From Eledone cirrhosa (taxonomy: Eukaryota), in assembly GCA_964016885.1 (NCBI GenBank), contig OZ024750.1, positions 27,280,001 through 27,344,000 of the forward strand: a DNA stretch of 64,000 nucleotides, read 5' to 3'. This document shows positions 2,186 to 57,536 of this stretch, piece after piece. The position numbers were made by a program, and so were the translations under genes. Position 1 is the stretch's first letter. Each line of letters opens with the position of its first letter. Under the pieces are notes generated by a model. That model saw only the letters and a program-made list of their open reading frames with translations. It ran no database searches and had not been told where the DNA came from.

Positions 2186-2320
2186 AATGCCAAGCAGGAA
2201 AGTTTGGTGTTAATTGTAACGAGACATGCCATTGTATCAACAAGAAAAACTGTGACACTCGAAATGGAAGTTGTTCAGATGGATGTACTGCAGGTCATAT
2301 TGGTGACAATTGCCAAGAAA
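2186..2320 (+). CDS. Paralog 1 EGF-like exon ([44 protein letters not shown])
   Basis: tttcag acceptor, 135 nt, GTATGA donor, 8 Cys. Confidence 0.85.
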
Positions 2321-54700: not shown

Positions 54701-57536
54701 TATATATATATATATATATATATATATATATATTGTTATATTTGGGGAGGGTCATATTTGCGTAATATTGCCAGAATTAATAACAGAACACACTCACTGT
54801 TTGGTTGGTGTTCTGTTATTAATTCTGGCAATATTACGCAAATATGACCCTCCCCAAATATAACAATATCTGTTTCGACACACGATTTCATATAAAAAAC
54901 CTCGCAAAACTATATATATATAAATATATATATATATCATATTTTACTTTTGAACAGAAATAAGGAAAGAACCACCAAATCCCCTTTATGTCGTGTTAGT
55001 TGGGTGTATACCAATTGCGTTAGTTGCAGCTGTGTTTCCATTCATCTATTACAGGTATGTGATTTATTGTATCAATACAATTGTTAGCAGTAATTGGTGA
55101 ATTTCAATCTGTCTGATGTTTAGATTAAAATCAATAAAATTGTATTTTTCTTTTATAATTGTATATTGGGTAATTGACCTCCGTATGTTTCAGCGATGAG
55201 TTTTCAATATGAAAACTTATTTTCCCAGTTAGGTTGTTCGGTGAATATTAATGACCACGTATAATATTAAATGTACTAATTGCAGTCGTTTGACTAATTA
55301 TTGCCTCATAATTTGACCAGGGCATTTAAAAAATTTCTTTTTCACAAAAACAGAGTAATTGTGTTTGATTGGCTAAAACAATCTTTGCCATGATGTTATT
55401 TGAATAGAGATACATCAGGCATAAAGTTGGAAACTGTAAAGTATTACATCTAGTTCTCAATATTGTGAATTTCCTATATATTTCATATTAGTATTTTATT
55501 GTTTTGACTAGAAATATTTTGATTAGCTAATTACAATTTCTATAGCCCAAGCAATATCAAGTTTATTTTTTATAACGTTATAAAGTACAAAATGTCACGA
55601 GTCATAGGCATACTTATTGAAACAGTTCATAATTGTGTCTAATATGTTAGAATTTTTTTTAAAATATACTTAAAAATTACTCGTACGTGGCAGTGGTTTG
55701 ACCTTTCCGCCTCTGCCTTCTATTTTTGCACACGGCACTGGACAGAATTGTTTCTATATCATTCACTCTCATCTCGGGAACAATTTTGAATAGCGCCAGT
55801 TCGTAATTTGAACTCGGCAATTTTATATTCTCCAAGTGAAAAGATCTTTCTGACGAGAGTCTTTCTCCTTAATGGATGTCCGTAAGGACTATCCATTTAT
55901 CTTTGAGACTTGAAACCGTACGGTAAAGGTAACTACAGCAGGTACAGTGAATTTTTTAAAATTTATTTAAACATTTTTCTTATTTGCTAAACCTTGATTA
56001 TATATGTTCTGGCTCGTTAATTTATTAACCTGCCATAGAACCACATTGGCAAATGGTTGGATAATACATGTGTCCCTATATGTATTTTGCATGTAGGGAT
56101 ATATATTTTATTATATATATATATATATATATATATATATATATATATATATATATATATATATATATATATATATAAAACTACATACATATGTACATAC
56201 ATTTACGTATGTGTATAACTATAGATTTATAGATTTGTATATATGCATGCATTTATGTTTAAGTGTGTGTGTGTATATGTGAGTTGATTTATATTGTTTT
56301 GGGTAAGGAGAACATTTTGACTCCAGATTTTATTACCTAGGGAGATTAACTACAACAGTTTTTCCTCCTCATCAAACACCAACGCCGGCCTGTATCTGTA
56401 TACATGCGTGTGTATGTTCGTATGTATGTATAAGTATTTACCCACACCTTTCATCACCATTGCTACATTTTCTTCTCATTTCTGTTCATGTTATTCTTGT
56501 AACTGTTGTCATAGTTGAGTAGCCCTTAGTTTCATTTTCTTTGATTTCTTTCGTTTTTTTCTTTTATCTCTCTAAGGAATTCGTTGACAAGCTTCTTTTA
56601 TTTATTTTCTTCGTTTTCTTCATTTAAATGCGTCCACACTGGCTGTCTCAGTGACGTACAAATATGGCTTATAAATTTACCAAAGTAAAGAGACTTCCAG
56701 CACCCCAAATCTTCAAACTTCCACCTAACGGCCCTTGCTCCCTAATAACCCCTTGCTCGTAAACGCCCCCGGGAGTTCATATGCCCCCCCCCCCCCCCCC
56801 GTTGAGAACCTTTTGGTTTAGACAGATAGCATATTATATTGTATAATAAAAATCATCTATTTGGCCGAAGACCAAACAATTCCAATGGGGATGTAATTGT
56901 TTAAAACTAACGCAGGATAAACAGATAATTTGAGCACAATTCAAGGACACATATTTTAGGGCGAGCTAGATGTAAATATATCAAGGTCACTACTCATAGA
57001 AAGTTTGTCAGGGACGAAAGAATGTAAGTCAAGTTTCTTCTCAATGAGATATAAACTGTGTATGTGAAAGGATATATGTCATTACAACATGTCATTAAGA
57101 AAAGCGCGCTACCGCCTCTGCTAACCAAAACCTTTCGGAAATTAAATAATATCCTAATTATGAAGAAACTAAATATAATATTCTATTATAGCTTTTCACT
57201 ACTACATTAGTCCATCTCAAACCCCTCTGGAGATAATTTCCTGTTTAATAACTGTATAATTTACTGGAGTTGGGGTTTACTAACTGTATTCCTTTTCTGT
57301 TGTTGTTTAGGAGGAAGTCAAAGAAAGGTTCCGGGCATCACAGTGATGATAGTGAAGACGACAGCGTTGTTGATGATGACGATGACGATAATGATGATGA
57401 TGATGATAATGATGATGATGATAATAATGATGATGCCGTTAAGGGTGATAATGATGATGCCGATAATGATGATAATGAGGATGCCGATAGTGATGATAAT
57501 GATGATGCCGATAATGTTAAACAATTCCAAGGTTAA
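24642..57536 (+). CDS. Paralog 2 (apparently complete, 12 exons, 521 aa if all included): signal peptide, 7 full and 2 shortened EGF-like repeats, TM, Asp-rich tail
   Basis: Exons 24642-24705, 31119-31253, 31428-31544, 35844-35978, 40101-40235, 44360-44494, 44662-44778, 50471-50605, 50790-50924, 51085-51219, 54958-55054, 57311-57536 sum to 1566 nt, in frame with no internal stop. Confidence 0.8.
25610..26575 (-). mobile_element. Degenerate RTE-like LINE in intron 1 of paralog 2
   Basis: [10 protein letters not shown] (FADD-like motif) and [11 protein letters not shown] motifs, frameshifted. Confidence 0.7.
28800..28842 (-). ncRNA. Minimal hammerhead motif, family E (related copies near 5700, 35350, 39610, 43870, 49985)
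   Basis: Minus strand acgttg-CTGACGA-tagc(taataa)gctt-GAAA-ctag-TA-cagcgt; palindromic CTAG loop III; the stem II closing pair is mismatched. Confidence 0.55.
30050..30885 (-). mobile_element. Rearranged Penelope-like fragments (pre-GIY-YIG region and 3' ends)
   Basis: ORF 30465..30812 shares QSVMFxNTTPRxELAYKFR...IVERPGTS with the 8402 ORF; an inverted 3' piece lies at 30784-30880. Confidence 0.7.
30289..30330 (-). ncRNA. Minimal hammerhead motif, family F
   Basis: Minus strand acca-CTGACGA-t-gttgca(gatg)tgcaac-GAAA-ggtt-TA-tgat; stem I weak. Confidence 0.5.
31119..31253 (+). CDS. Paralog 2 EGF-like exon ([44 protein letters not shown])
   Basis: tttcag/GT, 135 nt, 8 Cys. Confidence 0.85.
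31428..31544 (+). CDS. Paralog 2 shortened EGF-like exon, 117 nt, 5 Cys ([38 protein letters not shown])
   Basis: Splice sites intact, in-frame 18-nt deletion, first Cys changed to Tyr; may be skipped. Confidence 0.55.
33690..33771 (+). ncRNA. Type I hammerhead motif, family A (partner at 34309-34389)
   Basis: Stem I tgtttc/gaaaca, core CTGATGA...GAAA, stem III accgt-a-acggt, GUA cleavage triplet. Confidence 0.75.
35844..35978 (+). CDS. Paralog 2 EGF-like exon ([44 protein letters not shown])
   Basis: tttcag/GT, 135 nt. Confidence 0.8.
36930..37268. repeat. ~340 bp near-perfect palindrome (copy at ~41189-41527)
   Basis: Arms of ~170 bp centred at 37099 with essentially no spacer. Confidence 0.9.
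37163..37229 (+). ncRNA. Type I hammerhead motif, family C (mirror 36969-37035 on -; copies 41422-41488, 41228-41294, 21377-21443)
   Basis: ttttat-CTGATGA-long stem II-GAAA-tgcgca-TA-ataaaa; palindromic stem III. Confidence 0.7.
37967..38048 (+). ncRNA. Type I hammerhead motif, family A (partner at 38586-38666)
   Basis: Same fold, stem III accct-a-agggt. Confidence 0.75.
40101..40235 (+). CDS. Paralog 2 EGF-like exon identical to 35844-35978
   Basis: Part of a near-perfect ~4.26 kb tandem duplication. Confidence 0.7.
42232..42313 (+). ncRNA. Type I hammerhead motif, family A (partner at 42851-42931)
   Basis: Copy of 37967-38048. Confidence 0.75.
44360..44494 (+). CDS. Paralog 2 EGF-like exon ([44 protein letters not shown])
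   Basis: tttcag/GT, 135 nt. Confidence 0.8.
44662..44778 (+). CDS. Paralog 2 second shortened 117-nt EGF-like exon
   Basis: Identical by eye to 31428-31544. Confidence 0.55.
45770..46045. repeat. Long (TA)n microsatellite, representative of dozens of (TA)n, (TG)n and (GA)n runs
   Basis: Directly visible; source of the [12 protein letters not shown] pseudo-ORFs. Confidence 0.95.
48351..48432 (+). ncRNA. Type I hammerhead motif, family A (partner at 48970-49050 has a G10.1A change)
   Basis: Same fold as above. Confidence 0.7.
50471..50605 (+). CDS. Paralog 2 EGF-like exon ([44 protein letters not shown])
   Basis: tttcag/GT, 135 nt; positional counterpart of 6182-6316. Confidence 0.85.
50790..50924 (+). 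CDS. Paralog 2 EGF-like exon ([44 protein letters not shown])
   Basis: tttcag/GT, 135 nt; counterpart of 6510-6644. Confidence 0.85.
51085..51219 (+). CDS. Paralog 2 membrane-proximal EGF-like exon ([44 protein letters not shown])
   Basis: tttcag/GT, 135 nt; counterpart of 6805-6939. Confidence 0.85.
53090..54405 (-). mobile_element. Paralogous copy of the degenerate Penelope-like element
   Basis: Same motifs in ORFs 54157..54498 and 53772..53990; same intron position as in paralog 1. Confidence 0.8.
54730..54869. repeat. 62-bp-arm hairpin made from a Penelope-like terminus
   Basis: atattgttatatttggggagggtc...gaacac / gtgttc...gaccctccccaaatataacaatat. Confidence 0.85.
54958..55054 (+). 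CDS. Paralog 2 transmembrane exon ([33 protein letters not shown])
   Basis: gaacag acceptor, CAG/GTATGT donor, 97 nt phase 1-2, hydrophobic stretch. Confidence 0.8.
57311..57536 (+). CDS. Paralog 2 last coding exon: Asp/Asn-rich tail
   Basis: TAG acceptor; frame of ORF 57270..57536; ends VKQFQG* as in paralog 1. Confidence 0.8.

Follow-up and report, generated by a model that had tools for sequence, protein, structure and literature searches.

The 64,000-nucleotide (nt) window of the Eledone cirrhosa genome considered here (contig OZ024750.1, abbreviated C10, positions 27,280,001-27,344,000) carries two neighboring genes, A and B (g19 and g20), which encode predicted membrane proteins with repeats of the epidermal growth factor (EGF) type. 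Genes of their family start with a 64-nt signal exon and continue with 135-nt phase 1-1 EGF exons that each encode one eight-cysteine repeat (2-26 intact repeats per gene); a transmembrane (TM) exon of 88-109 nt and one final exon follow. The first-pass annotation of the window had proposed a tandem family, and A and B are indeed the last two of 20 genes in a 1.5-Mb array on C10. About 20 further family genes lie on a second contig, C2, and the family comprises at least 40 genes in two clusters.

The initial inspection had also counted, between A and B, 45 codons that change the amino acid against a single silent one, and an exact recount over the 185 aligned codons gave the same figures. The comparison spans the last three EGF exons together with the TM exon and 22 codons of the tail. 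The EGF exons differ at 3, 9 and 8 codons, the TM exon at 17 and the tail at 8, with one more difference at an exon junction (GAA/GAT); in the TM exon there are 16 replacements plus a CGG/AGG pair, the sole silent codon of the 185. The exon starts originally given were right, with AG/GT sites present and the EGF exons in phase 1-1, and the three terminal EGF exons are positionally equivalent, having collinear flanks at offsets of ~44.3 kb. By Nei-Gojobori (NG86) counting, the proportions of differing replacement (pN) and silent (pS) sites are 0.117 and 0.025 (Fisher p=0.0015). In six non-coding blocks, 191 of 5522 positions differ between the two genes (0.035); the replacement sites diverge 3.4 times as fast as this neighboring DNA (p=1e-12), while the silent sites match it (p=0.80).

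Selection on the membrane helix and the repeats

When more paralogs are included (17-25 TM exons and 131 EGF exons), the ratio of replacement to silent divergence (dN/dS, or omega) stays well above 1. This holds for several codon models, for a mutation matrix taken from introns, on a second tree, in disjoint TM pairs and when mosaicism is simulated. The codon models were custom-written, with fixed trees and naive empirical Bayes; the M0 model agreed with IQ-TREE (4.61 for the TM exon). Over 25 TM exons omega is 3.4-4.6, with 86-87% of the sites at 4.0-5.4 (likelihood-ratio test statistic, LRT, 63-89). In 17 of the 20 C10 exons, those without gaps, the values are 0.357 for replacement sites, 0.029 for four-fold sites and 0.063 for the adjacent intron, and omega is ~10 with the intron-derived matrix, on the exon tree or the intron tree alike. 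Eight disjoint pairs gave a pN of 0.196 and a pS of 0.070 (p=4e-5), and the helix core alone has an omega of 6.9 (LRT 41 against omega=1). By comparison, 20 neutral simulations with heavy mosaicism yielded omega values of 0.62-2.28, as against the 10.1 observed. Positive selection on the TM exon is thus a robust result. The core residues are nevertheless uncharged in 639 of 640 cases across 32 exons (the exception is one Arg), and Tyr, Pro and Val are near-fixed despite the divergence. A helical periodicity of this conservation was not significant (permutation p=0.13).

Positive selection on the repeats is well supported. For 131 distinct EGF exons, out of 156 selected for all eight cysteines, M0 omega is 1.9 and 48% of the sites are at 3.8 (LRT 172, or 161 with the intron matrix). 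Loss of cysteines 2-8 was seen just 7 times in 973 among 139 exons, a set that was unselected for these cysteines. There is about one N-glycan site per repeat; the N-glycosylation sequons sit at repeat positions 9-11, 18-20 and 26-28 in 27, 34 and 43 of the 131 repeats, respectively. Residues 11, 20 and 28, which switch these sequons, all belong to the omega>1 class, so selection may in part be toggling glycans. The membrane-proximal EGF exon has lost its usual donor in ~15 C10 genes (e.g. at 26034709 and 26285293). This donor-less class (18 distinct exons, a few of them from other positions) lacks the seventh cysteine in 9 cases, versus 1 of 139 elsewhere; an earlier GT would drop the eighth cysteine, and 3 of the exons carry a stop. 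These are possibly shortened, six-cysteine membrane-proximal repeats, or else decaying exons.

The signal exon serves as a partial control, with a tree length of 1.9 versus 15.3 for the TM exon. All 30 of the loci examined open with a 21-codon hydrophobic exon, judged from its sequence to be a signal peptide, and the hydrophobic core of these exons (L021-L050) is nearly invariant. Residues 2-4, 17 and 21 vary with omega above 1, residue 21 lying at the predicted cleavage end.

Gene anatomy and the two arrays

The exons of A and B are listed in the table, where RPTP denotes a molluscan EGF/galactose-binding/phosphatase receptor; two such genes were read here at C2:261.8 and 257.5 Mb.

Features of genes A and B (window positions)
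Feature	Position	Strand
Gene A signal exon	~8.2 kb upstream of window	
Gene A EGF exon 1	~6.0 kb upstream of window	
Gene A EGF-like exon 2 of 5, 135 nt, phase 1-1	2186..2320	+
Gene A EGF-like exon 3	6182..6316	+
Gene A EGF-like exon 4	6510..6644	+
Gene A EGF-like exon 5, membrane-proximal	6805..6939	+
Gene A short stalk and TM exon, 97 nt, phase 1-2, homologous to RPTP TM exon	12164..12260	+
Gene A last exon: basic/His start, then Asp/Asn-rich tail on GAT repeats	14570..14807	+
Gene B signal-peptide exon, 64 nt, ATG to phase-1 donor; absent from the first-pass list	24642..24705	+
Gene B EGF-like exon 1	31119..31253	+
Gene B degenerate in-frame EGF exon, 117 nt, three Cys missing, splice sites intact	31428..31544	+
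Two head-to-tail 4.26-kb units, one EGF exon each; no mismatch, 14 gap columns	35082..43601	+
Gene B EGF-like exon, first 4.26-kb tandem unit	35844..35978	+
Gene B EGF-like exon, second tandem unit, identical to 35844	40101..40235	+
Gene B EGF-like exon	44360..44494	+
Gene B second degenerate 117-nt EGF exon	44662..44778	+
Gene B EGF-like exon, equivalent to the gene A exon at 6182	50471..50605	+
Gene B EGF-like exon, equivalent to the gene A exon at 6510	50790..50924	+
Gene B EGF-like exon, equivalent to the gene A exon at 6805	51085..51219	+
Gene B stalk and TM exon; amino acid differs from gene A at 16/31 codons	54958..55054	+
Gene B last exon, acidic tail	57311..57536	+

The gene A model has 357 residues with five repeats, and that of gene B has 521 if all its exons, including nine EGF-like ones of which two are degenerate, are joined; each ends in a single terminal stop. 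The family's usual first EGF exon is missing from gene B, having been taken out by an upstream deletion, and the 4.26-kb duplication in this gene is a very recent change in exon number. In g18 (C10:27238677-27251635) there are five identical two-exon units at 2.56-kb spacing and a partial sixth; these, like the duplicated units of gene B, are either a very recent amplification or a feature of the assembly. Comparison of paralogs revealed no extra exon between the signal exon and the first EGF exon, though no EMI profile search was made. A profile built from 55 repeats matches human SCARF1 (PDB 8hna, E 3e-7), and protein searches with the repeats also hit proteins named MEGF10, PEAR1 or SCARF1. 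The Pfam matches to the repeats all fell below the curated cut-offs, the predicted fold of one 43-residue repeat (mean pLDDT 70, pTM 0.34) had no match in the PDB and protein searches with single exons returned no candidates.

Our counts of family genes, based on matches to the TM, signal and tail exons, are lower bounds. The TM exon has 34 matches in the genome (20 on C10, 13 on C2 and one on C1149); the signal exon has at least 40 family matches, 20 on each array contig, among the best 40 of 53 candidates scored; and the tail exon has at least 38, plus two in RPTP genes, among the best 40 of 52. The C10 stretches examined cover ~1.06 of 1.54 Mb and contain 217 EGF-like matches, 163 of them spliceable with eight or more cysteines. 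Two C2 genes examined in their entirety have the same layout as the C10 genes. The C10 array appears young, because its post-TM introns differ by only ~6% and cluster together; in an intron tree of 34 rows the 20 C10 genes are grouped (87/87), with a long RPTP branch and one misaligned C2 row. Protein searches brought up no close relative in other species, the highest identity to the first query being 65%, which faintly suggests that the family is lineage-restricted. In g11-g13 (C10:26526677-26690000) the first EGF exon has lost its donor, the last one contains a stop and nothing matches the tail exon; their TM exons are nonetheless open and divergent.

The acidic tail of A and B, at first thought to characterize the family, turned out to be confined to four genes, the last four on C10. 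A His-rich tail of 20-22 residues is found at 21 of the 30 tail loci examined, and lengths across the family vary from 2 to 78 residues, without domains. Two C2 genes (L148 and L152; C2:310.40 and 311.68 Mb) end two residues into the tail exon and are effectively tailless. The acidic form (window 14570-14807 and 57311-57536; also L156 and L158) is the ancestral short tail with a deletion and an extension by a GAT-rich repeat; in its first 20 codons pN is 0.225 and pS 0.054, versus 0.029 in the intron, which suggests that it is translated and selected. Neither NPxY nor YxxL occurs in the 28 tails examined or in that of gene A.

The window also contains traces of mobile elements. A large palindrome at 7513-9306 (center ~8408), within the intron between the last EGF exon and the TM exon of gene A, holds a GIY-YIG-like frame (8363-8866, E 1.5e-4) and is presumably a Penelope-like fragment. 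Just upstream of both TM exons, on the minus strand, lies a decayed reverse-transcriptase fragment (~10850-12040 and 53350-54410; RVT_1, E 0.002 and 0.0007). A GC-rich element fragment at ~22270-24370, directly upstream of the gene B signal exon, is common to other paralogs and has no Pfam match; it might supply promoter sequence.

Relationship to the RPTP genes

The best-scoring repeats among 218 retrieved proteins were those of Octopus RPTP-type proteins. Moreover, a query with the tail also matched C2:261.78 and 257.54 Mb, between the galactose-binding and phosphatase exons of the two RPTP genes, which correspond to Octopus RPTPs exon by exon. The RPTP TM exon has the same acceptor and donor context as that of the family, and the alignment to the RPTP genes extends over the TM exon and its flanks (68% over 263 nt, E 3e-20) and over the tail region (77% over 132 nt, E 7e-22). 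The RPTP counterpart of the tail exon has neither an acceptor nor a matching open frame and is therefore likely intron. An intermediate gene at the edge of the C2 array (C2:315.42-315.57 Mb, with 30 kb of its interior unread) keeps the N-terminal block and the galactose-binding exons and, after 11 residues, ends in the family's tail exon. Considering the alignment through TM exon, intron and tail, along with this intermediate, it is likely that the family consists of phosphatase-less offshoots of RPTP genes.

In the family itself the stop codon falls in the exon after the TM, so that the cytoplasmic tandem phosphatase domains are missing. A tblastn search, with a positive RPTP control, detected none of the N-terminal, galactose-binding or phosphatase exons, either in the C10 stretches or in the two C2 genes examined in their entirety, and none of the 72 genomic matches to PF00102 (a lower bound) falls inside either array. 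In the C2 cluster galactose-binding exons are limited to the edges (a single gene plus one more exon). No RPTP signal exon turned up in the stretches examined; the family signal peptide has a weak similarity to O. bimaculoides P0114 and P0222 (E 0.13, among 218 proteins). An atlas search with the RPTP repeat region gave only leads below 0.9, and a tree of 57 repeat rows did not resolve the branching.

The full RPTP layout occurs in abalone, oysters and snails and also, judged by the phosphatase, in cuttlefish. Because it is so widespread in molluscs, loss of the phosphatase probably came first. In such a history an RPTP-type gene would have come to end in a short exon within the post-TM intron, losing its phosphatase; the galactose-binding block would have been lost next; expansion on C2 would have followed, with the younger C10 array seeded from it; and a GAT repeat would finally have extended the tail in four genes.

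Elsewhere on C2 (230.4-233.1, 257.5-257.6 and 261.7-261.9 Mb) EGF/galactose-binding genes form a separate group, and several of them include phosphatase exons; around the TM exon, 4 of 1592 sites distinguish the copy at 257.5 Mb from that at 261.8 Mb, and near C2:231.11 Mb EGF exons recur every ~257 bases. On contigs C20, C22, C23 and C27 the galactose-binding domain has 13 or more weak matches that are nearly identical to one another, representing another multi-copy lectin-like family.

Known systems and candidate functions

Genes of this kind have been described in snails (LG5R and SudRes1), so the family is not without precedent. According to the work on Biomphalaria glabrata LG5R (PMC13712769), clustered signal-EGF-TM genes with small tails (subgroup 1A) lie under a schistosome-resistance peak, beside galactose-binding (1B) and phosphatase-bearing (1C) relatives; the main text does not contain the words "positive selection", "decoy" or "cephalopod". 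The 1A genes resemble ours in their signal peptide, MEGF10/SREC-type EGF region, one TM helix, small domain-free tail and clustering. Unlike them, the family described here belongs to a cephalopod and forms two arrays of no fewer than 40 genes in total; each symmetric exon, present in 2-26 copies, encodes a single repeat, and there are a traceable intron homology to RPTP genes and a measured omega of 4-10 that includes the TM helix. The link to parasite resistance belongs to the snail locus, and the likeness seen here is one of architecture. The SudRes1 region of B. sudanica is likewise rich in MEGF and RPTP genes (PMC12297450). With these and the Octopus RPTPs (P0001, P0002, P0013 and P0018) the family shares the eight-cysteine repeat, a homologous TM exon, splice sites and flanking introns; unlike them, its translation ends in a short exon and, in the stretches and genes searched, it lacks the other RPTP exons.

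MEGF10, PEAR1, Draper and CED-1 are conserved single genes with an N-terminal EMI domain and a long signaling tail bearing NPxY and YxxL. The repeat type and single-pass topology of our family are those of this group (SCARF1/SREC, MEGF10/MEGF11/PEAR1, Draper/CED-1), but it is multi-copy and fast-evolving, without such a tail or motifs. The CEACAM/PSG genes (PMC7042247) offer a parallel in their tandem paralogs, gene conversion, positive selection and members without a signaling tail. Their fold and that of BST2/tetherin are unrelated to ours, and the family has no charged TM residue or ITAM/ITIM tail. BST2/tetherin is a known case of selection on a membrane helix; here, by contrast, nearly the whole helix diversifies, and among paralogs rather than orthologs. 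Receptors coupled to adaptors of the DAP12/FcR-gamma type have a charged residue within the TM helix, unlike the present family with its one Arg among 640 core residues. A literature search that did not extend to supplements or subscription papers found no cephalopod description of the family and no selection at the TM level in this class.

Our preferred interpretation, which we hold to be reasonably probable, is that this is a recently expanded family of predicted single-pass membrane proteins under strong positive selection, likely derived from RPTPs and likely acting as non-signaling, pathogen-binding receptors or decoys. Of the earlier proposal of a rapidly diversifying cell-surface recognition system, the rapid diversification is borne out by the dN/dS values, while the recognition role is still an interpretation; an immune function, in particular, would follow from analogy with the snail loci. 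Having no enzyme and neither NPxY nor YxxL, these proteins cannot signal as the parent RPTP does and, as there is no charged TM residue either, any signal would have to come via an intramembrane partner. Gain and loss of symmetric one-repeat exons by unequal crossing-over would determine how long the disulfide-braced rod is, changes at its loop residues and N-glycan sites would track or escape ligands, and the driver would be a birth-and-death arms race with pathogens.

Several observations weigh against this interpretation. The TM and intron trees have just 2 splits in common, and in 248 of 300 TM pairs the NG86 pS is higher than the divergence of the introns, so gene conversion is present. 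A model-free test of the EGF exons, with 40 disjoint close pairs, gave a weaker, non-significant signal, with a pN of 0.032 and a pS of 0.022 (p=0.06). Moreover, 54 of the 217 C10 EGF-like matches are faulty (39 short or broken, 15 without the usual donor), and 3 of the 20 C10 genes have no tail match; symmetric EGF exons would presumably let broken copies be skipped. The short tail is barely constrained (omega 0.59, with a C10 divergence equal to that of the flanks); hence read-through of the TM donor, which would give 14-15 residues in 27 of 32 genes, stays an alternative to the tail exon. Finally, the direction from RPTP to short form is deduced from the molluscan spread, the tree being unrooted, and the data would agree just as well with an old alternative last exon that the ancestor already had.

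A tolerance for hydrophobic swaps can bring omega to 1 at most, not to 7, and the TM helix itself is therefore likely a contested contact surface, either for a foreign membrane protein, as with tetherin, or for a host partner. The boldest version of this idea, that the helix is the recognition surface of an invertebrate immune receptor family and that ~40 different uncharged helices engage or escape membrane proteins of parasites or viruses, or else join the parent RPTPs, is rather doubtful in our estimation; if true, the arms race would be fought within the lipid bilayer. The TM diversity could alternatively be a pairing code, with paralogs joining an RPTP or one another and so tuning phosphatase dimerization. 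The homology of the TM exon to that of RPTPs and the high omega of a helix core with near-fixed residues would fit, and TM residues control the dimerization and activity of PTPRJ, as stated in 10.1101/672147. However, the two RPTP TM sequences are identical, leaving few partners for 40 diverging helices, and the conservation lacks helical periodicity, which makes such a code unlikely. Unlikely as well is a homophilic code for self/non-self or cell identity (allorecognition, skin or sucker self-recognition, neuronal identity). Such a code could draw on the many clustered paralogs, whose repeat numbers vary and whose surfaces have diversified, and adhesion needs no signaling enzyme; but it is birth-and-death host-parasite families, rather than stable identity codes, that are marked by sustained high omega and decay, so that an omega of 4-10 with frequent exon and gene decay suits the former better, and the nearest relatives on record map to parasite resistance.

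Positive selection and lineage-restricted expansion are also typical of gamete-recognition proteins, and the searches brought up no close family member among the annotated proteins of other octopods. Gamete-recognition or reproductive-tract proteins under sexual conflict are nonetheless quite improbable, given an architecture and ancestry that point to the resistance-associated class of snails. We would be surprised if these were engulfment receptors of the Draper/CED-1 kind, for apoptotic cells or modified self: the repeat type is that of SCARF1, MEGF10 and PEAR1, but the tails lack the motifs and a conserved self ligand does not predict an omega of 4-10. Hardly credible, lastly, is that the skew is artefact or drift, produced by pseudogenes, a relaxed hydrophobic helix, AT bias or gene conversion. 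Some exons and probably some genes are dead, and conversion is evident; yet replacement sites are three- to six-fold above silent sites and introns. Gene conversion as the sole cause, AT bias and pseudogene drift were rejected: neutral mosaics never exceed 2.3, omega rises to ~10 with the intron-derived matrix, and cysteines, frame, splice sites and TM hydrophobicity are maintained.

While the kind of receptor is known from snails, the surprise is the positively selected TM helix: one that evolves about six times faster than the adjoining intron and yet stays uncharged is rare. The intron homology makes the steps of the family's origin readable, from the loss of phosphatase and then lectin to the multiplication of repeats and the conversion of a microsatellite into tail. 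Cephalopod immune recognition is poorly mapped, and the family provides a large, young and strongly selected candidate repertoire, related to loci that genome-wide mapping has connected with the resistance of snails to schistosomes. This suggests that a single RPTP scaffold has served molluscs repeatedly for building recognition arrays.

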